The translations under genes and the position numbers were made by a program. Below are positions 3,001 to 14,316 of a stretch of 64,000 nucleotides of DNA, piece by piece; position 1 is the first letter of the stretch, and the number at the start of each line of letters is the position of its first letter. Source of the DNA: Candidatus Peribacteria bacterium (lineage in GTDB: Bacteria > Patescibacteriota > Gracilibacteria > Peribacterales > Peribacteraceae); assembly GCA_023245935.1 (NCBI GenBank), contig JAHFJM010000001.1:6067-70066 (forward strand), in the 5' to 3' direction. The notes under the pieces are model-generated. The model saw only the letters and a list, made by a program, of their open reading frames with translations. It was not told the origin of the DNA and did not search any database.

Positions 3001-4870
3001 CGACAGGGAAATCGAGGTGGATTATGCGGCACTGAACAAGTCTCTACAGGAATCTGAAAAGGTACTACATGAGATCCAAGTGTGGGTTGAGAGAGCCGAT
3101 ACCGCTGCCGCTATCGGTGCATCAATTGCTGTGCCAGTCTGGGGTGCAGGAACCTATGCCGCAGTACGAAACCTCATGGACGTCTACGCAACAGGAGCCA
3201 AGCAGAAAGAAGAAGCACTGGCTGATTTCGCACTGATGTCATTCGCAGGTCTCGTCGGTGGTGCTGCGTCCGGAGTGACAAGCAAAGGAGTGGTTTCACT
3301 CGGAAAACTTGCTCCGGGAGCACAAAAAACGGTAATGGCATGGGCACAGAAGAATGCTGCGTCTCTCTCCATGAGAGCAGCGCAGACATTCCTGGAGTAC
3401 GGATCCAAGGCGGGACTGGGCGCAGTCTCCGGTGCCACGATGGCTGGCGTCGACTCTGGTGCACGCAATGCCTATGACGTTTCACATGGACGGAAGACCG
3501 AAGAACAAGCATGGGAAGAGACGAAGAGTGCCGTGAAATCCGGCGCGCTCACCGGTGCTCTGATGGGTGGAGCGATGCATGGAGTAGGAAAAGTTGCGAA
3601 TCCGGCATGGGAAAAAACAAAAGCAGGAATGAAGAAAGGCGTGGAGAAGGTGAAGGCAAAAATAAAGTCTAAAGGTAAGCCAAAAGAGGAAAATCCTCCA
3701 AAAGATGACGAGTCTGGTGGAACCGCCAAGCCGACCGATACACCTCCGGACACTCCTCCAAGCTCTCCCACAAGTACGCCAGAAACACCGGAAGCATCTG
3801 CAGGAGCTGCGCCTAAGAAGGAAGCACCGAAAGCAGCGCCCACCGCGCCTGCTGCAAGCCCAAGTGTCTGGAAAGAAGGTGAAAACTTCGCGCTGTTCCC
3901 CGGCATCACTCTCAAAGACGCATCCGGCAAACCATTACCACATGGTGATTATAAGATCCTGCAATCCAGCAACTTTACGCCTCCGGGGAAGAGAGTACTG
4001 AACTATCGAGATGGCACTCCGGCAGGAAAGACAATCATTGTGAATGAAAGTGATTTGAGTCAGATCCCGAAAACTCCTGCAGCGCCACCACCGCCTGCGA
4101 TGAAGAATGCGCCAAAGGCAGCGCCTACGGCTGCTCCGTCAAAGCCCAGCGAATGGAAAGCGAATGATGGTTTTGCCATTTATAAAGGAAACTCGTTAAA
4201 AACAGCCGACGGAAGGACGCTTGCGAACGGTGATTACCGAGTGGAGCCACGAACGCCTTCGACGCCTGCGGGCGAGACAATTGTCAGTCGGAGCGACGCT
4301 GGACGAACTGGAGAACGTATAGAATTCTCAGTGAGAACTGAGGATCTTGCTCGGATGCCGAAAACTCCTGCAGCACCACCTCCACCTGCAATGAAAAATG
4401 CACCAAAGACCGCATTTAAGTCGGAAGGAGAGAATAAGCTGGATCAGCTTGTTGCACAGGAGAAGCAACTTCGTGCCGAAGTAGACAAATACAAGCCAGG
4501 AACATCGAATCCGAGTCTTGAGAAAAAACTAGAGGATGTTCGTAGTGACATAAAATTTTTACGTGGAATAAAAGCGGCTGGGAGAGCGCAGGTTGAACAG
4601 ATTCTTTCTTCACCTTCCGCGTCCTTTAGCCAGATTGAGGATAATATGATTACCTATCTGGCATTCCATGAGAACCCAAATATCGCACTTCTACAAAAAC
4701 ATATACCTACATTTACGAGCAGATTGAAAGAATTGGAAACAACCCTACTACCGAAGAGCAACCCATTAACAAAGGATGGGGTGATATTAGCGGCAGAGGC
4801 TCAGCATCTACCTAGTCTAATCTTAAAAATGCAGGAAATCATTGCCAATGGTATCAAGCACGGCAACTAA
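2..4870 (+). CDS. Giant hypothetical protein (>1616 aa, 5'-partial): Pro/Lys/Ala-rich linkers, coiled coils, Gly-zipper hydrophobic region, tandem ~97-aa repeat
   Basis: Frame is open from base 2, so the true start is probably upstream of the window. Stop TAA at 4868-4870 overlaps the map stop. No recognised family. Confidence 0.8.
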   Translation, partial: DVFLNTLNKGTTKRLNKIPSLQPAPQKGADAIRPNAKGTPAATPAAPKAKPTTDYEEPTTKAPDAAESEQSTLIGYEKAMPKPFEVNKEPTKPAKQTEQAPEADKNSDIKSAMDNLVFFLGAHEFDDNAKSALDQLNAGLEKRKLLDGKSKALASVGLMKEGNDVDGRLMRTPKTRIVENPNSGSKYEIGTDIDSTKVWVAEVKQEGAKPKSAPNTVPNTINPLFALRKTTVNAARLIATLEKEVQSTSNPMDPALVAKMKQALAAYCEAGLKEWGALKNQVKDRDEGRMKELETDVLIKKGRLIVLNSTFPDIAPADLASNAPSLPATPEPKPAGKPESNQPSAEPVAPASSQNAPTAAKEQSEKTDESPSSGLRRPKDVITDSFPKNPEAFVKRMEELQEKIWKMQGEKMEARKTRNDVKVRDIGHDLSALTKEYSMMNQAFRKNTGMSFERWKSDDSEYNQAIADRKRLEKTGAFSSERFKKAMAAMNPVVPQDAPSTPDANPKTTPDAPSGAPQAKADAKTTPNTPKAAPKGTAPDTPDVPKATPKDKKTDTPDKPQEAPKTKGQALGREMKAALQKMEKAETKDEKWEALLELLAAAFKYLDALIHGRLNDAHDSKNAPKDTPEQLKSKEVHARIAGELKARRDGKPLDAQLTDMETEKKKELAITENDLKKNKTDTEEGEKKGTELVAQKTALETERKSMKSDDPKAAALDAKIKEFGEQIVLNQEAVKKLKERRPVLLKQEERLTEDLKAVKEISEGVATVLKTLKAGLEFLLKEKAFDSYALKLSPEGNIMVSFENPTAGFSEKVQAIGGKEEGTAVIIDISKVDTGKLALPVKNAPGARKEEPEDKIEAPADAKNLTVQEMGKVLKDTWTVLNGKIERTMANILEAKKDLDEVKASGNWFRKGWVSNEIKTKETNFTKSTDALAKLNQYKAKISQYVDPSGEIKKDLKLDEKKVAEINDVRKQLGLPALPRNMVADYKAFQEEAIAKHKGRDREIEVDYAALNKSLQESEKVLHEIQVWVERADTAAAIGASIAVPVWGAGTYAAVRNLMDVYATGAKQKEEALADFALMSFAGLVGGAASGVTSKGVVSLGKLAPGAQKTVMAWAQKNAASLSMRAAQTFLEYGSKAGLGAVSGATMAGVDSGARNAYDVSHGRKTEEQAWEETKSAVKSGALTGALMGGAMHGVGKVANPAWEKTKAGMKKGVEKVKAKIKSKGKPKEENPPKDDESGGTAKPTDTPPDTPPSSPTSTPETPEASAGAAPKKEAPKAAPTAPAASPSVWKEGENFALFPGITLKDASGKPLPHGDYKILQSSNFTPPGKRVLNYRDGTPAGKTIIVNESDLSQIPKTPAAPPPPAMKNAPKAAPTAAPSKPSEWKANDGFAIYKGNSLKTADGRTLANGDYRVEPRTPSTPAGETIVSRSDAGRTGERIEFSVRTEDLARMPKTPAAPPPPAMKNAPKTAFKSEGENKLDQLVAQEKQLRAEVDKYKPGTSNPSLEKKLEDVRSDIKFLRGIKAAGRAQVEQILSSPSASFSQIEDNMITYLAFHENPNIALLQKHIPTFTSRLKELETTLLPKSNPLTKDGVILAAEAQHLPSLILKMQEIIANGIKHGN
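3830..4410 (+). repeat. Tandem duplication of a ~291-nt (97-aa) domain
   Basis: PKTPAAPPPPAMKNAPK is encoded at both 4067 and 4358. The preceding segments align (WKEGENFALF..LKDASG..L.HGDY vs WKANDGFAIY..LKTADG..L.NGDY). Confidence 0.85.
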
Positions 4871-5628
4871 GCCACCACCTCACACCCCCCTTCGGTAATC
4901 AGCACCGAATGTTCGAAGTGACAGGAGAGACTCCGGTCTTTCGTGATCACCGTCCACTGGTCTTCAGCTGTAAATACGTCGGGTGAGCCCATCGCGGCGA
5001 TCGGTTCAATCGCAATCATCGTACCGACGGGGAGCACCGGACCCGTGCCTGCTTTGCCGACGTTCGGAACATCGGGGAACTGATGCAGCGTCGTGCCAAG
5101 CCCGTGCCCTGTAAGCGTACGGACTGCGCTGTAGCCTGCTTTCTTGAGGTGCTGCTCGATATAGGAACTGATGTCTCCAACCTGCACACCCGCCTTCACA
5201 ACGTTCGCAATCACGTCTTCAAGTGTCTGCGAGACATGCGTCAAAAATTTCTGCGTCGACGGCTTGATGCGCCCCACCCCGACCGTGATGCAGGCATCGG
5301 TGTAGAGATCGTCAACGATCACTCCCCCATCGAGCGAAATAATATCCCCTTCCTTCAGGACTTTGTCGTCACGAGGAATACCGTGCACGACTTCTTCGTT
5401 GATCGAGGTACAGAGCGTGCCGGTGAAGCCGTAGTACCCGAGGAACGCCGGTCTTCCGCCCTTCGTGAGTATGAATTCCTCCGCCATCGCATCGAGCATC
5501 TTCGTCGTGACACCGGGCACCGCCGCCGCACCCACGAGCTTCAGACAATCGCGAAGGATCGCTCCACCCTTGCGAATGGACGCCATTTCCTCAGGCGTGA
5601 AAATTTGGAAACGATTCGAGAAAGACAT
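4867..5628 (-). CDS. map: Methionine aminopeptidase type I
   Basis: Motifs CTSINEEVVHGIP, GHGLG..LH, AIEP, HFEHS. Lies downstream of secY-adk. Confidence 0.97.
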   Translation of the reverse strand: MSFSNRFQIFTPEEMASIRKGGAILRDCLKLVGAAAVPGVTTKMLDAMAEEFILTKGGRPAFLGYYGFTGTLCTSINEEVVHGIPRDDKVLKEGDIISLDGGVIVDDLYTDACITVGVGRIKPSTQKFLTHVSQTLEDVIANVVKAGVQVGDISSYIEQHLKKAGYSAVRTLTGHGLGTTLHQFPDVPNVGKAGTGPVLPVGTMIAIEPIAAMGSPDVFTAEDQWTVITKDRSLSCHFEHSVLITEGGCEVVA

Positions 5629-5672
5629 GAAGGCATACTATCAGAAACTCAGCTGTACGATTGTGCAGCCAG

Positions 5673-6395
5673 TTATGCGGGAATCGCAATAGACTCATCC
5701 TGCAAAGATCCGCTCAGCACCTGCTGGACGCGCGCGTAGACTGCCTGGATACTCTCATGAACCTCATCAGGATGTGCACGTGTCGGATCAAGCCCGGTAT
5801 CACCATCCACATGGATCAATCTTCCCTGACGTCGAAATTCGTCGATCACCGGAACCGTCTCTTCGTAAAACGTGCGAATTCTCTTTTCAACAACCTCCGG
5901 CTTCGCATCATCTGCACGACCTTCAACTTTGGCACGATAGGCGATATTTTTCCTTGCAGTTATGTCTGAGACAGCGATATGGAGCAACTTCGCATCACCA
6001 CGACCGACCTCTGTAAGGGTCTGATCGAGTGCATGCTTCTGCTTGAGTGTTCGAGGGATGCCGTCGAACATCACACGGGAGACACTGTCTCTCTGAAGAG
6101 TAAATTCCTGCACAATGCGCATCACAGTTTCCTGTGAAACCAATGCTCCGGTCTTCTGTGCTTCTCGCACCAACTGACCTAATTCTGTTTCCTGAGCTGC
6201 AATCTTGCGTAGCTGCGCACCCATATCGAACCCCGCATACTCGAAATCCTTTTGCAGCATCTTTCCCTGCGTTCCTTTACCCGAACCCTGTATGCCGGCA
6301 AGAATCAGAGTGTTTGGAGGTGTAATCACTGATTCATGGTGCCGTGCTTCAGCTACATGATGTGAATGGTGCGAGTGAAGATGGAGAGAATTCAT
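5673..6395 (-). CDS. Adenylate/NMP kinase paralog with His-rich N-terminus
   Basis: P-loop GIQGSGKGTQ, FDGIPR and EGRADD motifs. Second adk-like copy in tandem. Confidence 0.88.
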   Translation of the reverse strand: MNSLHLHSHHSHHVAEARHHESVITPPNTLILAGIQGSGKGTQGKMLQKDFEYAGFDMGAQLRKIAAQETELGQLVREAQKTGALVSQETVMRIVQEFTLQRDSVSRVMFDGIPRTLKQKHALDQTLTEVGRGDAKLLHIAVSDITARKNIAYRAKVEGRADDAKPEVVEKRIRTFYEETVPVIDEFRRQGRLIHVDGDTGLDPTRAHPDEVHESIQAVYARVQQVLSGSLQDESIAIPA

Positions 6396-6490
6396 GATAT
6401 TAAAGAATAAAAGATAATAATGTCAAATAACCTGTCTTGCGGCAGGGTAAAGCATTTTCAGAGGAAAAGCAAGGGTAACCAGTCGCAGAC

Positions 6491-7051
6491 TTACGATACT
6501 TTCTGCTTCAAACTGTCATAAATATCGTCTACAGATCCTTTTGCAACGATATCGATCACTTTTTCTGCTTTTTGATAGTGCTGGATTACCGGCATGGTTT
6601 TCTCGAGAAATGTGCTCATTCTGCGCTTAATAATGTCTGTATTTGCATCATCCGCCCTTCCTTCCGCCTTTGCGCGCCCGAGAATGCGGTTTGTCGCCTC
6701 CTCCTGACTCAGGAGGAAATGAATGCACCGGAAATCACGACCGGCAGCCTCCATAATCGCATCGAAATCACGCATCTGAGCATCGTCTCTGGGAATACCG
6801 TCGAAGAGAATCTTGGTGGATTTTGGACGAGCGGCAATCGCCTCTTTCACGACTTGCATGATGATCTCGTGAGGCACAAGGTGCCCTTGGTCGATGGTGC
6901 TCTTCACGAGATGACCCAGTTCGGATCCGGAGGCTGCGATCTTCCGAAGTTCTCCTCCCGCCTCGAAGATGTCGTAACCGAACTCAGCCGCAAGCTTCTT
7001 GGCTTGAGTTCCTTTGCCGCTGCCTTGAATGCCGAAAAAGACTAAATCCAT
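6491..7051 (-). CDS. adk: Adenylate kinase (short-LID type)
   Basis: GIQGSGKGTQA, FDGIPR and GRADD motifs. Canonical position after secY. Confidence 0.93.
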   Translation of the reverse strand: MDLVFFGIQGSGKGTQAKKLAAEFGYDIFEAGGELRKIAASGSELGHLVKSTIDQGHLVPHEIIMQVVKEAIAARPKSTKILFDGIPRDDAQMRDFDAIMEAAGRDFRCIHFLLSQEEATNRILGRAKAEGRADDANTDIIKRRMSTFLEKTMPVIQHYQKAEKVIDIVAKGSVDDIYDSLKQKVS

Positions 7052-7073
7052 ATTGGATGGTAGTACTTCCAGA

Positions 7074-8354
7074 CTACACTAATTTCTCGTAGTCGTGTGC
7101 GAGCAGCTGCGCGTTCACCTGACGGATCAACTCGAGAACGACACCGACGATGATGATGAGCCCGGAACCGGAGACGATCAGATCCTGCGAACTGAGAGTG
7201 GAGTAGCGGGTGAAGATCAGCGGGATGATGGCAACGATGCCGAGGAACACGCCTCCCCAGAGATTGAGGCGATTGCTGGTGCGCTCGAGCATCTTCGCGG
7301 TCTCAAGTCCCGGACGAACGCCCGGAATGAACCCTCCGCGCTTCTGAATGTTCTCGGCAAGTTCGGTCGGCTTGAAGGTGACGGAGACGTAGAAGTACGT
7401 GAAGACGATGACGAGCAGGAAGTAGAGAACCATGTAGAGAATCGACGGATGCTGGGAACTGAGATTCAGGTTGATGAAGTTCACGATCCCCTGAAAGCGA
7501 GGAGCGGTTTGCAGGAACTGTGCGATGATGCCCGGGAAGGTGATGAGCGAGATCGCAAAGATGATCGGCACCATTCCCGCCTGATTGAGGCGGATCGGAA
7601 TATTGCCTTTCACACCGCGACCTGCACCCTGGTTCGCGTAGGTGATGGGAATGGCACGATGTGCATCGGTGAAGAGCACGACCGCGACGAGCATCGCGAG
7701 AGAGACGATCAGAAACAGGTAGAACGCACTCAATTTATCTTGTCCGGCAATGAACATATTGGTGACGGTATTCGGCATGCCGGCGACGATACCCGTGAAG
7801 ATCAGGAGTGAGATGCCGTTGCCGATCCCCTTCTCGGTGATCAGCTCTCCAAGCCACATCACGAAGATGCAACCGACGGAGACGAAGAGCATCGGCGCAA
7901 GAACGGCGGGGAAGGTGAGAGGAACAATGTTGCCGCTGCCGCCCCTGTTCAGGAGGAGCAGGAAACCGTAACTCTGCATGAATGCGAGAACAATGCTGAG
8001 CCAGCGTGTGTACGTGTTGATCTTCTGCTGCCCCTGAATGCCTTCCTTGCTGAGCGACTCCAGTTTCGGGAAGATCACCGTGCAGAGCTGCAGGATGATC
8101 GAGGCATTGATGTACGGAGAAAGACCGAGCAGTGCGATGGAGAAGTTCTTGATGGCGCCGCCGGTGAGTGTCGCGAAGATCCCGAGGGTGCCGCCCGCAT
8201 TGCTGTTCTGGAGAAATTTCTGGAGGAGTGCCTTGTCCGAACCCGGAATGGTGATGTGTGAAATGACGCGGTACAGGAAGAGAATCGCGAGCGTGAACAC
8301 GATGCGCTTGCGGAGATCGTTACTGCGCCAGAGCTGTCGGAGGTAGGTGAACAT
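7074..8354 (-). CDS. secY: Preprotein translocase SecY
   Basis: LGLSPYINASII, GIGNGISLLIF and FIPGVRPG motifs, about 10 TM segments. Confidence 0.98.
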   Translation of the reverse strand: MFTYLRQLWRSNDLRKRIVFTLAILFLYRVISHITIPGSDKALLQKFLQNSNAGGTLGIFATLTGGAIKNFSIALLGLSPYINASIILQLCTVIFPKLESLSKEGIQGQQKINTYTRWLSIVLAFMQSYGFLLLLNRGGSGNIVPLTFPAVLAPMLFVSVGCIFVMWLGELITEKGIGNGISLLIFTGIVAGMPNTVTNMFIAGQDKLSAFYLFLIVSLAMLVAVVLFTDAHRAIPITYANQGAGRGVKGNIPIRLNQAGMVPIIFAISLITFPGIIAQFLQTAPRFQGIVNFINLNLSSQHPSILYMVLYFLLVIVFTYFYVSVTFKPTELAENIQKRGGFIPGVRPGLETAKMLERTSNRLNLWGGVFLGIVAIIPLIFTRYSTLSSQDLIVSGSGLIIIVGVVLELIRQVNAQLLAHDYEKLV

Positions 8355-8359
8355 AAACG

Positions 8360-8803
8360 CTACGCTCTCACAATCGTAATGGAGCCGCCCGCTTTCTCGA
8401 CCGCTTCTTTTGCGGAGACGGAGACGGCGTAGACGCTGAGGGCAAACTTCTTGGTCACTTTACCGCGTCCGAGGATCTTCACCGGCATCTTGCCGCTCAC
8501 GATGCGGAGCGTCGCAAGCGTCTCTTTATCATGCGTTCCTGCGGGGACTTTCGCCTCGAGGGTATCGAGGTTCAAGACTTCGACTTCCACGCGTGACGGG
8601 CTGATGAAACCACCGAGTTTCGGTTGCCTTCGGATGAGAGGCGTCTGTCCTCCTTCAAACCCCAGGCGGCGACCTTTACCCGTGCGGGACTGCTGACCTT
8701 TGGTACCGCGACCCGCGGTAGAGCCGCGACCGGAACCGTTGCCGCGGGCGAACCTGCGACTGGTGTGCGTGGAACCCTTGTTTGGCTTGAGCGTGTGAAG
8801 CAT
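8360..8803 (-). CDS. rplO: 50S ribosomal protein L15
   Basis: RGNGSGRGSTAGRGTKGQ and FEGGQTPL motifs. Start trimmed to MLHTLKP. Confidence 0.96.
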   Translation of the reverse strand: MLHTLKPNKGSTHTSRRFARGNGSGRGSTAGRGTKGQQSRTGKGRRLGFEGGQTPLIRRQPKLGGFISPSRVEVEVLNLDTLEAKVPAGTHDKETLATLRIVSGKMPVKILGRGKVTKKFALSVYAVSVSAKEAVEKAGGSITIVRA

Positions 8804-8911
8804 ATAAGAAAACGATGCAGAGAGATCAAAACGCAGGGGAGTCTTTGTATGCCTCTGCGGACGAAGAGAGTACCGAGAAAAGGAGAGGAGGTAAAGGGAA
8901 AAGGAGCCCTC

Positions 8912-9068
8912 TTGACACACCCCAAAACCACTCTCTAAGATATGCCCGTGATTCATTCCCTGTCCCTTACGCTCAGTCTCTCCCTCCTGCTTACTGCGGG
9001 AAGGCGGCTGGCTGCGTAAGTGATTCGTCACAAAGCAGAGCCTCCTTCCCACGAGAGGCTGGTTTTTT
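8912..9068 (+). promoter_or_regulatory. Putative leucine-type transcription attenuator: sigma70 promoter, Leu-rich leader ORF, alternative hairpins and terminator
   Basis: TTGACA(8912)-18-TAAGAT(8936). Leader 8942/8948-9019 reads (MP)VIHSLSLTLSLSLLLTAGRRLAA*. gggaaggcggct (8998-9009) can pair with agcctccttccc (9039-9050), competing with the agcctc/gaggct stem followed by a T-run. Confidence 0.65.
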
Positions 9069-9099
9069 ATGTTATTATTTCTCACTTCCAATTCTCCCC

Positions 9100-9273
9100 A
9101 TGAATCCCTCAACTGAGACACCGATGCAACAAGGAAACGACAACGTGAAGATCGATCGTGAACCATCCGTGCATGACAGCGTGTATCCGATCCACGCGAT
9201 CATCGCTCACTGCGCGGCAGTGAGATCAAGAATTGAAGAAAGCAATGCAACGATCATCGATATTCCGGTCTAA
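9100..9273 (+). CDS. Small hypothetical protein (57 aa)
   Basis: MNPSTETPMQQ...IAHCAAVRSRIEE. Shares the IAHxAAVR motif with the next ORF. Confidence 0.5.
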   Translation: MNPSTETPMQQGNDNVKIDREPSVHDSVYPIHAIIAHCAAVRSRIEESNATIIDIPV

Positions 9274-9306
9274 ATTATTTATTTCACTTCATTTCCAATC
9301 ACTTCT

Positions 9307-10191
9307 ATGTCTACCATCGATACTCAAGACCAAAGAAATATCGTCGTTGATGAACGCGGCAGAGAATCAAGCGCTCCTAACCCAAACGATGATAAGGTTC
9401 AAACCGAAGCACGATTACTTTCAGAACGTTCCATGGCAAAGTTATGGAAACTTGGTTACGTAGAAGCACCAAGCCCTGAGGCAGTACAGGGGTATATCGA
9501 AAGCCAAGGATTCTATTTACAGAAACATCTGCCTAAGGGGGATGAAGTGCAATTCTATGTGGGGAAAGGCGATGGGAAAAAGATCGGCATCAAGATACGA
9601 AAAGTTCCTGCAAGTCCGGAACAATCAGATACTCAAGAGACAATGAAGGTCTATTCGAGAGTGAGTAAAAGAAGAAAGTGGAGGGGTGGAGGGACGTGGA
9701 AGTTACACGAAGTTCCAGACGTCGTTTCCGGGCTGACAGAAGCTGCCGATATTCGACCGGAGAGACTGGAAAGTTACTGCCTAGAACAGAGACCCACTCG
9801 ACGCTCGAAAAGCCCGTGGGCGCATCGGGATGCAGGTGCCCATAATGCGGTGAGGACGCATGAGACACATCAGGATGTTCTCGAAGCTGCCAAAGTCCAA
9901 CACGAGCCTCCATCCATCCGACCGTACTCGGAAAAGGATCAATGGAACGTTATCGCGCACTCCGCTGCAGTGCGATTCATTCAGCATGTCGTGGCAAATC
10001 CCGATACCGATCCCGAGGATGCCTTTCGGAGAGTATTCGATACTGGATCCATCGATGCACTCAACGAGAGCGGCATCGTTCTGGCTCTCATTAACCTCTG
10101 CGGAGAGATGCGATCCTCACTGGCACCGGAGCAGTTTCAGAGGCTGGATATGATCAAGTCTGCTGCAGTTACACAGTTTTGCATGCGCTAG
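9307..10191 (+). CDS. Hypothetical protein (294 aa)
   Basis: Long ORF occupying the gap between rplO and rpsE. No recognised family. Confidence 0.75.
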   Translation: MSTIDTQDQRNIVVDERGRESSAPNPNDDKVQTEARLLSERSMAKLWKLGYVEAPSPEAVQGYIESQGFYLQKHLPKGDEVQFYVGKGDGKKIGIKIRKVPASPEQSDTQETMKVYSRVSKRRKWRGGGTWKLHEVPDVVSGLTEAADIRPERLESYCLEQRPTRRSKSPWAHRDAGAHNAVRTHETHQDVLEAAKVQHEPPSIRPYSEKDQWNVIAHSAAVRFIQHVVANPDTDPEDAFRRVFDTGSIDALNESGIVLALINLCGEMRSSLAPEQFQRLDMIKSAAVTQFCMR

Positions 10192-10251
10192 CCCATTGAC
10201 TTCCCGCATCACTTCCTCGAACATGCCTTCCAAACTTTTCCCCTTCACGCT

Positions 10252-10632
10252 GTGAAAACCGTCATCGAACTGACCATCAACCTGCCGAATAATCCGGGAG
10301 CACTCGCACGTACCTCGGACGTCCTCCGGGCGGCAGATGTGAACATTGAGGCGCTATCTTGCACCGAGGGACCGAAGCAGACCCTCGTGCACCTCGTGGT
10401 GAACGATCCGGAGACGGCGAAGATCGTTCTCCGCCCGATCAGCGATGTGGTGGAGACCGAGATTGTCGCCTACAAAGTGAGCAACAAACCGGGTGCGATC
10501 GCCGATCTTGCACGCAAGTGCGCGGGTGGCGGCGTGAACATCAAACACATCTATGCGACGTCGCTCGGCAAAGAAGCGATGTGCTATGTCGATGTCGATG
10601 ATCTGGAGAATGCGAAGAAGGCGCTGAAATAA
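10252..10632 (+). CDS. Tandem ACT-domain protein (amino-acid-binding regulatory protein)
   Basis: Two ACT repeats: NNPGALARTSDVLRAADVNIEAL and NKPGAIADLARKCAGGGVNIKHIY. GTG start. Confidence 0.9.
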   Translation: MKTVIELTINLPNNPGALARTSDVLRAADVNIEALSCTEGPKQTLVHLVVNDPETAKIVLRPISDVVETEIVAYKVSNKPGAIADLARKCAGGGVNIKHIYATSLGKEAMCYVDVDDLENAKKALK

Positions 10633-10679
10633 GCCAAGTCCAAAGGGAGCGGCATGCTTGCCGCGTGTTTCAGGCATCA

Positions 10680-11348
10680 TTATCCTCTCGGTCCCTCGCC
10701 CATCTGCTTCTTGTCCTGTTCGTTCATCTTCACTTCCTTGATCGGAAGATTCGGACCGGACGGGATGTGAATGCCGAGATCCGCAGCGGATTTATTTGCC
10801 ACTGATGCCGCACCGGACACTGCGACCGGAGCGCTGTCCGCTGCGACTGCCGCGCGGCTTCCACGAAGCATCGAAAGCGCTTTCATGGCTGCCTGAGCGT
10901 TCACGAGCTTATTACCGGTTCCAAAGCGCTTTGCGAGCGCGTCTTTCACGCCTGCAAGATCAAGAATGACACGCAGCGGTCCACCGGCGATGATTCCCGT
11001 TCCTTTGCTCGCAGGCATGAGACGGAGCTTCGCCGCCTTGTGCTTGATATTCACCTCGTGCGGAATCGTCGAGCCGTTCATCGGCACGATGATCATGTGA
11101 CGCTTCGCATCGCGCTGCGCTTTCTGGATGGATGTCTGCACTTCTGTTGCTTTTCCGGTACCGAGACCGACCTTGCCTTTCTTGTTCCCGAGGACAACCA
11201 CCGCGCGGAAGCGCATGCGGCGACCTCCCTTCACGACACGCGTGACACGATCGATGGCAAGCGTGACATCTTCGTATTCGGACGGTTCGCGCTTCCTGTC
11301 GGAGCGACGATCGTTTTTCTTGCGGTCTGGACGGGAGGATTTAGCCAT
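10680..11348 (-). CDS. rpsE: 30S ribosomal protein S5
   Basis: RVTRVVKGGRRMRFRAVVV and GTGIIAGG motifs. Start at MAKSSR. Confidence 0.97.
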   Translation of the reverse strand: MAKSSRPDRKKNDRRSDRKREPSEYEDVTLAIDRVTRVVKGGRRMRFRAVVVLGNKKGKVGLGTGKATEVQTSIQKAQRDAKRHMIIVPMNGSTIPHEVNIKHKAAKLRLMPASKGTGIIAGGPLRVILDLAGVKDALAKRFGTGNKLVNAQAAMKALSMLRGSRAAVAADSAPVAVSGAASVANKSAADLGIHIPSGPNLPIKEVKMNEQDKKQMGEGPRG

Positions 11349-11353
11349 GAAAA

Positions 11354-11638
11354 TCAGGAGTGAAGAAGAGTATGCGGAACGGAGAGTTGACCTTCGGCAT
11401 TGTGCGCGGGAACTTTCCAATTGGCGATGACATCGCCCTCGAAATCCGGAGACAGGGCAGCGGCAGGGATTTCGAATGTCGCACTCACCTCACCGAGAGT
11501 CAGCAAAGCAGCCAAGCGCGAAGAATACGGGTTTGGAAAAGCCTCCTGATTGTTGTGCCCGACCTCCGTGAGATGCGCTGACAGATGATCGGTCAGTTCG
11601 GGTGTCGAAACGGTGATGGGAGCTTGGATTGATTGCAT
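11354..11638 (-). CDS. Hypothetical protein inserted between rplR and rpsE
   Basis: 94-aa ORF fills the gap exactly (3 nt after the rplR stop, 5 nt before the rpsE start). Confidence 0.6.
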   Translation of the reverse strand: MQSIQAPITVSTPELTDHLSAHLTEVGHNNQEAFPNPYSSRLAALLTLGEVSATFEIPAAALSPDFEGDVIANWKVPAHNAEGQLSVPHTLLHS

Positions 11639-13812: not shown

Positions 13813-14316
13813 TTAAGAACCGCGACCGGCGGAACGGGTGGGAATGGCGGCTTTGGCCGGACCTGTCTCTCCTTTCACACCTTCGGCAGCGGCATCCGCA
13901 CCGAAGCCGACTTTGTTCCAGAATCCCGGCTTCTTCGTCTTCATGGCTGATGTGTCGGTTGCCGAAGCTTCTTTCTTTTCCTTCGGCGCGGCTTCGATCT
14001 TCGTTCTCGTAAGAGGAGTTCCGCTTTTCTTGGCAATGCGAACCTTCTGTCCGGTCTTCTGGTCGATTCTGTACCCGACGCGACTCGCCTTTCCGGTCTT
14101 GGGATCGACGATCTGAACGTTGCTGACGGAAATCGACGCTTCAAGACGCATTTTCTTTCCCTCCGATTGCGTCGTCTTCTTCACGTGCTTCGTCATGATA
14201 TTGACGCCGCTCACGATGACACGATTCTGGGCGGCAAGCACACGCATGATCGTGCCTTTCTTGCCCTTGTCCTTGCCTGCGATAACGACGACGGAGTCGC
14301 CTTGAGAGAGCTTCAT
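13813..14316 (-). CDS. rplX: 50S ribosomal protein L24 with C-terminal extension
   Basis: KOW motif GDSVVVIAGKDKGKKG. Confidence 0.96.
   Translation of the reverse strand: MKLSQGDSVVVIAGKDKGKKGTIMRVLAAQNRVIVSGVNIMTKHVKKTTQSEGKKMRLEASISVSNVQIVDPKTGKASRVGYRIDQKTGQKVRIAKKSGTPLTRTKIEAAPKEKKEASATDTSAMKTKKPGFWNKVGFGADAAAEGVKGETGPAKAAIPTRSAGRGS

Follow-up and report, generated by a model that had tools for sequence, protein, structure and literature searches.

A leucine-codon leader with competing hairpins, probably a transcription attenuator, inserted in the ribosomal-protein cluster of a Peribacteria bacterium

The stretch of DNA analysed here, termed the window, comprises 64,000 nucleotides (nt) of a Candidatus Peribacteria bacterium (GenBank assembly GCA_023245935.1, contig JAHFJM010000001.1, positions 6,067 to 70,066 of the forward strand). 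In many bacteria rpmD lies between rpsE and rplO. At this position the window carries a 1.9-kb cassette on the plus strand, opposite to the ribosomal genes, which consists in order of a promoter, a leader open reading frame (ORF), two hairpins with a T-run, two genes termed ORF57 and ORF294, and an ACT-domain gene. A first-pass annotation had proposed an insertion in the rpmD slot, and this stands: the cassette sits between rplO and rpsE, and no L30 family match is found in the 99%-complete genome. The first part of the cassette is likely to be a leu-type ribosome-mediated (leader-peptide) transcription attenuator, to judge from its sequence and that of its relatives, and would represent a sequence family specific to Peribacteria, which are very small bacteria of groundwater. 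Its parts are as follows.

8912-8941, plus strand: sigma-70-like promoter with -35 TTGACA (8912-8917), an 18-nt spacer and -10 TAAGAT (8936-8941), 10 of 12 consensus matches
8948-9019, plus strand: leader ORF of 23 codons from GTG 8948, or 25 codons from ATG 8942, with stop TAA at 9017-9019
8960-8992, plus strand: Leu-codon run (CTG 8960, CTT 8966, CTC 8972, CTC 8978, CTC 8984, CTG 8987, CTT 8990), the proposed sensing window
8970-8991, plus strand: region 1, pyrimidine-rich, overlapped by the Leu-codon run
8996-9016, plus strand: region 2, made up of the leader's last seven sense codons and serving as 5' arm of the antiterminator; region 1 is its alternative partner
9020-9031, plus strand: apical hairpin of the antiterminator (GTGA/TCAC)
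9035-9050, plus strand: region 3, the 3' arm of the antiterminator, of which 9039-9045 is also the 5' arm of the terminator
9053-9068, plus strand: region 4 (GAGAGGCTGG, 9053-9062) and T-run (9063-9068), an intrinsic terminator with region 3 or region 1

The element persists while the genes behind it change. Within the genus it is about 84% identical, and the cargo is fully replaced. Ten of 40 relatives share the DNA of 8910-9100 at 75-84% identity; they comprise all five congeners and members of five further genera. Of 200 family genomes, 38 carry a 24-base core motif; they belong to 17 of 84 genera, and a reversed-pattern control gave two matches. The covariance model R1, built from 37 copies, detects the element in 74 of the 151 family genomes searched, from 48 of 84 genera. 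In the window genome R1 finds one real copy, that of the window, which scores 83 bits on the plus strand against 32 on the minus strand and is among the best of all. A second candidate in the same genome (G000:C6:485959-486045, R1 23 bits) was rejected as a CT-rich stretch without hairpin arms. When one genome for each of 185,579 species is scanned for the exact motif, 27 matches are obtained, of which 22 are metagenome-assembled genomes (MAGs) titled Candidatus Peribacteria, Peribacterales or Peribacteraceae; we estimate the other five to be at chance level. A cmscan of 8300-11500 against Rfam with E up to 10 returns only two chance-level microRNA matches and no T-box, riboswitch or Leu_leader model. 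Modules of leader, switch, terminator and cargo ORF are arranged in tandem in three lineages (G003, G070 and genus g71, the latter represented by G119 and G121), and in g71 the second copy is internal to the operon and has no separate promoter.

The leader ORF (8942/8948-9019) encodes MPVIHSLSLTLSLSLLLTAGRRLAA. Seven of eleven consecutive codons specify Leu, as had been noted at the outset, in a genome where Leu makes up 10.1% of residues. An in-frame ATG or GTG lies 20-27 codons ahead of the stop in all 38 motif copies (36 genomes), and the stop is TAA in 29, TAG in 3 and TGA in 6. Several genera carry a 3-nt insertion in the leader that keeps the frame, and the Leu codons of relatives vary synonymously among CTC, CTT, CTG and TTG. 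In 31 distinct leaders outside genus g40, counted over the 15 codons before region 2, Leu occupies 207 of 465 codons in the ORF frame compared with 63 and 29 in the other two, and Pro shows the reverse, with 7 codons in the ORF frame and 51 and 131 in the others; the pyrimidine-rich stretch of the leader is thus consistently read as Leu. A further 40 divergent copies, fetched after the covariance-model search, all contain the leader ORF, which is Leu-rich in 39 (5-14 Leu) and of a Pro type in one. On this comparative evidence the leader ORF is under selection as an ORF, since its start, stop and frame are maintained.

The TTGACA-18-TAAGAT promoter was also part of the original proposal and is present at 8912-8941. 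By itself the consensus promoter scan is at chance level, with 2 sites against 1.6 expected from shuffles. A promoter-like pair accompanies 37 of 38 relatives' copies, and in 34 of 38 an in-frame ATG or GTG follows the end of its -10 element at a distance of 6-12 nt, both under a lenient criterion in a scan without a shuffle control. The typical distance from -10 to start codon is 6 nt for GTG and 7-12 nt for ATG. Transcription in the window would start near 8948, and the promoter-start spacing suggests that the leader mRNA is probably leaderless or nearly so. The conserved spacing agrees with the first-pass annotation, which had raised the possibility of a leaderless mRNA.

Three pairings compete in the leader RNA. 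In the 2:3 pairing, GGGAAGG.GGCT..CTGC at 8998-9015 pairs with GCAGAGCC.CCTTCCC at 9035-9050 (-28.2 kcal/mol), giving an antiterminator hairpin that spans 8998-9050. In the 3:4 pairing, AGCCTC at 9039-9044 pairs with GAGGCT at 9055-9060 (-8.9 kcal/mol) and is followed by T6 at 9063-9068, so that the terminator spans 9039-9060. In the 1:2 pairing the Leu codons themselves are able to pair with region 2. All three had been described before and are present, whereas the minimum-energy fold is not 1:2 beside 3:4 but 2:3 nested in a 1:4 helix, which joins 8974-8982 with 9053-9061. The whole stretch folds with a z-score of -2.57, a strength equalled by 1 of 200 shuffles. In fold z-score and promoter count the window sequence alone is only mildly unusual, and the case for more than chance rests on conservation.

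The same antiterminator hairpin is formed alone by all 37 foldable copies, and across 16 aligned pairs 92.7% of cells are paired; sliding the partner by 1-3 columns lowers this to 49-56%. Two-sided changes occur at three pairs, and the covariation score is reached by none of 500 shuffles, a figure to be read with the kinship of the copies in mind. The tandem second copy of genus g71 has a fully compensated mid-stem. The apical part forms a hairpin in nearly all relatives and varies in sequence and length. Many antiterminator cells hold G-U pairs compatible with the plus strand only, and G-U pairs, T-run and promoter all fit that strand alone. In 32 of 35 copies the antiterminator's 3' arm contains the 5' arm of the terminator, and in 31 of 35 the terminator helix ends no more than 3 nt from the T-run; of the 38 copies three are excluded from these counts, one with too short a locus and two without a T-run by the criterion used. 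The portion of region 3 that the terminator uses differs by lineage, being either the AGCCTC or the CCTTCC part. This is hard to explain other than by selection for mutual exclusivity of the two hairpins. The 1:2 helix is paired in 89.6% of cells, compared with 50-66% when slid. The first-pass annotation had pointed to conserved Leu-rich leaders and covarying stems in relatives as the evidence to look for; leader ORF, antiterminator and terminator are indeed conserved across many genera.

Regions 1 and 3 are alike, so two folds are possible for the RNA free of ribosomes. Among the minimum-energy folds of 35 copies, 1:2 and 3:4 stand side by side in 13, 2:3 is nested in 1:4 in 18, including the window, and a separate extra hairpin occurs at the T-run in 4. 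Region 4 is paired in all 35. The effect of a ribosome was modelled in the same number of copies by partition-function folding with 30 nt masked around an assumed A-site, which describes equilibrium only and neither kinetics nor ribosome-polymerase coupling. With the ribosome stalled 6-12 codons before region 2, the median probability is 0.99 for the antiterminator and 0.00 for the terminator. With the ribosome at the stop codon, the medians are 0.00 for the antiterminator and 0.64 for the terminator, which exceeds 0.5 in 22 of 35 copies. The free RNA is intermediate, with medians of 0.58 for the antiterminator and 0.53 for the terminator. In the window, only an A-site placed within about 8972-8987, midway along the Leu run, leaves region 4 single-stranded; placing it at 8960, 8990 or the stop codon gives a helix that ends 1-2 nt short of the T-run. 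Masked folding, suggested earlier as a check, thus gives read-through for a stall in the Leu run and termination for a ribosome at the stop, in silico.

The nature of the genes behind the element in relatives links the leader codons to particular amino acids. Behind 11 of 78 copies, spread over nine genera, stands a LeuA-like gene; the window copy has no cognate biosynthetic gene downstream. In the congener G001 the cassette consists of the leader, a 168-amino-acid ORF without known identity, a 2-isopropylmalate synthase gene, the ACT gene and the convergent rpsE. The synthase scores 581.8 bits with NCBIfam NF002086 (cut-off 532) and matches the Pfam families HMGL-like and HCS_D2. Among the 40 further copies, tblastn places a LeuA-like gene directly after the terminator in 10, of which 6 are also found by Pfam among the 33 first ORFs scanned; four were scanned against NCBIfam, where the best match is 2-isopropylmalate synthase at 327-331 bits, below the cut-offs. 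Otherwise the cargo is highly variable between genomes, and several group-specific small protein families recur in it.

Two further leaders extend this pattern. Genus g40 retains the same scaffold with a Leu-poor and Pro-rich leader, in which Pro occupies 24 of 90 codons in the ORF frame compared with 12 and 5 in the other two. The first gene behind it is an amino-acid kinase in four of six genomes, with glutamate 5-kinase (ProB-like) as the best NCBIfam match (E 1e-39 to 1e-53, below the cut-off), and two g40 genomes also hold a separate Leu-type copy elsewhere. Outside the window, the same genome contains an Ile leader unrelated to the Leu element (G000:C5:131550-133320, minus strand). Its ORF of 20 codons has five Ile in seven codons and starts 5-8 nt after the -10 of a promoter, and it is followed by a GC-rich hairpin and a T7 run ending at the ATG of the downstream gene (fold z -3.0). 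The best match of that gene is citramalate synthase TIGR00977, with 412.9 bits against a cut-off of 450, and in the congener G001 another synthase of this family likewise stands behind a homologous leader rich in Ile and a terminator. Three codon-to-enzyme matches, for Leu, Pro and Ile, make an amino-acid-specific reading much likelier than a by-product of base composition.

In the window the genes behind the terminator are of a different kind.

9100-9273, plus strand: ORF57, first of the cargo genes, whose start lies 31 nt behind the T-run
9307-10191, plus strand: ORF294, the second cargo gene, an ORFan whose first part is low in GC
10196-10224, plus strand: the ACT gene's own promoter, with TTGACT (10196-10201), a 17-nt spacer and GAACAT (10219-10224)
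10252-10632, plus strand: stand-alone ACT-pair protein of 126 amino acids (Pfam ACT, ACT_AHAS_ss and ACT_8), convergent with rpsE

Neither ORF57 nor ORF294 has a match in Pfam, NCBIfam, PADLOC or PHROGs. Both had been taken for ORFans, which holds for ORF294 and not strictly for ORF57: tblastn finds relatives of the latter in two other genera, at 41% identity over 54 amino acids in one and 44% over 39 in the other, and in both they sit after the same element. A near-length search of 5.8 billion proteins returns only ORF294 itself, it has no match in 40 related genomes, and its Atlas model (pLDDT 0.43, where pLDDT stands for predicted local distance difference test) shows no confident fold. GC content falls to 0.42-0.46 at 9100-9700, compared with 0.55-0.60 in the flanks, which fits recent acquisition or fast turnover of the cargo. 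A decayed leuA was considered and rejected, as tblastn of LeuA- and CimA-like proteins against 9060-10260 gives a best E of 0.38. A defence or phage origin was likewise discarded after 15 proteins had been compared with PADLOC and 14 with PHROGs, none of them matching a family.

Cargo ORFs start 20-60 nt after the T-run, and a consensus scan finds no promoter of their own in the window. At most loci their starts are preceded by pyrimidine-rich stretches of the type TTCC...CCC-ATG (9083-9102 and 9285-9309 in the window), and many first cargo ORFs open with Met-Asn-Thr. No Shine-Dalgarno motif is visible by eye before the cargo start. The pyrimidine-rich starts may represent a group-specific context for translation initiation.

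For the ACT-pair protein 118 relatives were found, whose names go no further than "ACT domain-containing" or "hypothetical". Same-strand ACT-pair genes lie downstream of the element in 16 of the 36 motif genomes and in 8 of the further 40 copies; in 17 of the 36 motif genomes rplO is the divergent upstream neighbour. At all 16 loci examined, a TTGAC(T/A) box, a spacer of 16-18 nt and a cANNAT-like element occur about 25-35 nt before the ACT start. The window counterpart at 10196-10224 escapes the consensus scan since its -10 matches at only three of six positions, and the peptide that it seems to encode in frame ahead of the ACT start is probably nothing but conserved promoter DNA. Having its own promoter, the ACT gene can receive a contribution from the attenuator only by read-through. 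The earlier suggestion that the element gates the ACT gene therefore does not hold as its primary role, and a read-through contribution is the most that is left of it. The direct targets of the attenuator would be the ORFs between the terminator and the ACT promoter.

The cassette interrupts a cluster of minus-strand ribosomal-protein genes at 4867-8803 and from 10680 onward.

8360-8803, minus strand: rplO (L15), which flanks the cassette on the left and diverges from the leader promoter
10680-11420, minus strand: rpsE (S5), the right flank, as listed; its true start is likely to be 11348

Read backwards from S5, the order is S5, L18, L6, S8, S14, L5, L24, L14 and S17, and on the other side of the cassette lie L15, SecY, two adenylate kinases and methionine aminopeptidase. 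The ribosomal-protein operon is thus split by an opposite-strand cassette (8804-9100 on the minus strand), and on the minus strand a consensus scan gives no sigma-70-like promoter that could serve rplO-secY-adk-map. The interval 8804-8905 is about 83% conserved inside the genus, and the 3:4 hairpin doubles as a weak minus-strand terminator (9060-9039). A minus-strand reading of the element, as a 5' leader of rplO or an N-terminal extension of L15, was rejected: the minus ORF 8360-9166 is out of frame with L15 in a congener, and the strand difference in the R1 scores also speaks against it. The two adenylate-kinase-like ORFs after secY are arranged in tandem (5673-6395 and 6491-7051, minus strand), and the downstream one (5673-6395) has a His-rich N-terminal extension. 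Long C-terminal extensions are found in S5 (a 246-amino-acid ORF; 10680-10830) and in L24 (167 amino acids; 13813-14100), and the S5 tail is conserved at the loci of relatives.

The wider genomes add a metabolic puzzle. No match to leuB (Iso_dh) or leuC (aconitase family) is found in five genomes of the window's genus, nor in five genomes with a LeuA-like gene behind the leader, one of which is a single-contig genome (G000-G003, G005, G162, G179, G184, G190 and G193 in all). Likewise, proA and proC are missing from the matches in five g40 genomes. In each of these searches the positive controls matched in all 14 reference genomes. The LeuA-, citramalate-synthase- and ProB-like genes therefore appear to be orphans, as far as family matches indicate. 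This fits the premise from which the first-pass annotation had started, that of an auxotrophic cell of the Candidate Phyla Radiation (CPR), and also the description of the group, in the available part of PMC4736985, as having few amino-acid biosynthesis genes and taking amino acids from outside.

Taken together, these observations favour a leu-type attenuator, the reading given to the element from the start, which now draws on conservation, on LeuA-like cargo in relatives and on masked folds. The comparisons establish the conservation of the parts, the mutual exclusivity of the hairpins and the LeuA-like link in relatives, and every structural hallmark of the class that can be examined in silico is present. 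A start of transcription at the promoter, translation of the leader, termination at the T-run and a response to leucine are what we infer from these features. In the proposed mechanism, transcription would start at or beside the leader start codon, giving a leaderless mRNA. Pyrimidines predominate in regions 1 and 3 and purines in regions 2 and 4, so region 2 could pair with either 1 or 3 and region 4 with either 3 or 1. If the ribosome is absent or has advanced to the stop codon in region 2, region 4 would be paired, its helix would end just ahead of the T-run, and transcription would stop at about 9068. When Leu-tRNA is scarce, a ribosome would stall in the Leu run and cover region 1; the 2:3 hairpin would then form, leaving region 4 single-stranded, and RNA polymerase would read through. 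Such read-through would reach ORF57 and ORF294 and possibly add to transcription of the ACT gene.

Several observations weigh against this reading. None of the five sequencing runs found for the stretch is on record as RNA. The sequences compared are kin, and the counts overstate their independence. The 1:2 helix lacks two-sided covariation and does not rise above shuffles; it is compatible with the data but unproven, and could just be pyrimidines facing purines. For the same reason, some of the Leu and Pro richness may stem from the need to pair. The terminator still exceeds 0.5 in the stalled state in 6-9 of 35 copies, which by our reading are mostly those with an extra independent hairpin. 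The CTC, CTG and CTT codons of the leader are the commonest Leu codons of the genome and not rare ones. In the window the cargo has no link to leucine, ORF57 and ORF294 being unrelated to LeuA, and 25 of the 33 first ORFs scanned in relatives are without a Pfam match. The cognate enzymes are orphaned, the rest of their pathways not being found in ten genomes for leucine and five for proline, which makes the physiological logic of leucine control puzzling. Finally, mutation of the candidate codons in actinobacterial leuA/ilvB leaders did not behave as classical attenuation predicts, according to the accessible part of PMC1262725.

Some of these points would suit a general sensor of translation capacity, in which any slowing of leader translation, be it by few ribosomes, shortage of any amino acid or poor leaderless initiation, causes read-through with no specific tie to leucine. 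Such a sensor could well use common Leu codons and control cargo unrelated to leucine, as in the window and most copies, and a CT-rich sequence is needed anyway for pairing with region 2. We nevertheless regard it as unlikely: the Leu enrichment is frame-specific and kept through synonymous changes, LeuA-like genes follow 11 of 78 copies, and Pro-rich and Ile-rich counterparts precede matching enzymes. Moreover, ribosome-free folds keep a helix at the T-run, so that poor initiation would lead to termination and not to read-through. A different doubt concerns the window copy alone, which might be a relic of an attenuator that is real elsewhere and became useless here after ORF57 and ORF294 replaced a LeuA-like gene. 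The ORFan cargo with its low GC and lack of a predicted fold, and the retention of LeuA-like genes in only 11 of 78 copies, are what a relic would leave. Decay is hard to reconcile with a copy whose 83 bits rank among the best and whose promoter, start, stop, Leu run, hairpins and T-run are all intact; an element identity of about 84% within the genus under total cargo turnover is moreover a pattern of purifying selection. This makes a relic rather improbable.

Very improbable, in our judgement, is an RNA switch controlled by a protein or ligand, with the near-invariant hairpin (GGGAAGG...CTGC GUAA...) as a binding site, for example for an amino-acid-loaded ACT-pair protein, and translation of the ORF as a secondary matter. 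Both hairpin arms are more conserved than pairing alone requires, and the element has an ACT gene downstream in 16 of the 36 motif genomes and 8 of the other 40 copies; a protein-binding reading has also been proposed for the actinobacterial LEU element, as the consulted portion of PMC1262725 describes. The double constraint of coding and pairing also explains the invariance, maintenance of start, stop and frame indicates selection on translation, many copies lack a nearby ACT gene, and no known RNA family matches. Lowest in our ranking, with only a slight chance of being right, comes an independent gene unrelated to those downstream, encoding either a hydrophobic, signal-peptide-like peptide of 23 amino acids or a trans-acting RNA of about 120 nt, or both as a dual-function small RNA. 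One variant would be a secretion-monitoring arrest peptide next to secY. The basic N-terminus and Leu-rich core of the peptide are suggestive of an independent gene, as is a conserved element beside hypervariable cargo, and trans-acting attenuator RNAs and leader peptides are known from Sinorhizobium, in the part of that literature available. An independent gene, however, needs no terminator arm inside its own hairpin, an arrangement present in 32 of 35 copies, and cargo ORFs follow 20-60 nt behind the T-run with no promoter of their own found in the window. Polar residues (S, T, N, Q, R, G) stand between the Leu residues, the core in g40 is Pro-rich and not hydrophobic with the RNA structure kept, and the C-terminal residues change along with their pairing partner. 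An arrest peptide of the SecM/MifM type was rejected on similar grounds, as the N-terminal 15 residues shift from Leu-rich to Pro-rich with RNA pairing kept and the C-terminal residues covary with pairing partners. A role in trans in addition to attenuation would be compatible with a leu-type attenuator.

If the element is such an attenuator, it presents a paradox, namely a leucine gauge in cells apparently unable to make leucine, or textbook control of biosynthesis without the biosynthesis. Its outputs would be orphan first-step enzymes and hypervariable genes lacking known function. One tentative view, which we consider possible but doubtful, is that Peribacteria, being unable to make most amino acids, use leaderless attenuators specific for Leu, Pro or Ile codons as ribosome-based gauges of external amino acids. 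In place of biosynthetic pathways, the outputs would be orphan first enzymes of a feedback type (LeuA-, citramalate-synthase- and ProB-like) and a fast-turning slot for lineage-specific small proteins such as ORF57 and ORF294. These outputs could make a precursor or signal for a partner cell, or change the interaction when the amino acid is short. Attenuator plus cargo would then constitute a duplicable module, given the tandem copies in three lineages.

To our knowledge, cis-regulatory RNA in the CPR is almost unexplored, and a full-text literature search returned nothing in print on leader-peptide attenuation in Patescibacteria or the CPR. The element adds a widely conserved and clearly delimited family that is missing from Rfam and could join annotation pipelines, and the cargo genes behind it can be flagged as likely starvation-induced. 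If it reports amino-acid supply, it would offer a handle on how an uncultivated symbiont senses the provision made by its partner and a natural inducible switch for future genetics of the group.

Comparable systems are known in other bacteria. Outside the proteobacteria, leader ORFs with Leu codons precede leuA or other branched-chain amino-acid genes in actinobacteria (the leuA LEU element and the ilvB and leuS leader peptides; available text of PMC1262725) and in Staphylococcus aureus, where a Leu-rich attenuator peptide precedes ilv-leu (PMC5794164, as far as its accessible portion goes). The LEU element is described in the same part of PMC1262725 as a pseudoknot in whose base stem the Leu run is paired to leuA's Shine-Dalgarno box, and as lacking a terminator; the Peribacteria element differs in that its terminator is clear and that inspection by eye shows no Shine-Dalgarno motif ahead of the cargo start. 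The mycobacterial polycysteine short ORFs of the "ribulon" (bioRxiv 10.1101/834739, in the sections available) offer a further parallel: they are sensory ORFs enriched in one codon and leaderless, as the Peribacteria leaders probably are, occur in several independent copies per genome, exert amino-acid-specific control and act by ribosome stalling that remodels mRNA structure. They respond to Cys, according to those sections, whereas the Peribacteria leaders are built on Leu, Pro and Ile, and the terminator hairpin and T-run of the latter point to transcriptional control.

T-box and amino-acid riboswitch leaders are also cis-acting terminator/antiterminator switches that report amino-acid supply. 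The Peribacteria element is only about 120 nt long, includes a conserved and presumably translated ORF and matches none of their models; it belongs to no described sequence family. The closest likeness is with the classical leader-peptide attenuators of the enterobacterial leu, ilv, trp, his, thr and phe operons, represented in Rfam by Leu_leader among others. Common to both types are a short leader ORF in which the cognate codon abounds, four regions that can pair alternatively as 1:2, 2:3 and 3:4, and a terminator with a U-run; in part of the Peribacteria copies the cargo is a LeuA-like gene, matching the cognate first enzyme. In contrast to the enterobacterial attenuators, the Peribacteria element has no Rfam match in sequence or structure (E up to 10), its mRNA is probably leaderless and region 2 ends with its stop codon. 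The likeness of regions 1 and 3 makes the nested 1:4 plus 2:3 fold an equal alternative, the rest of the pathway was not found in the host, and in the window the cargo is made up of ORFans, ORF57 not strictly so. The departures from the classical cases lie in the probably leaderless geometry, in the symmetric four-region design and, above all, in the cargo and the host.

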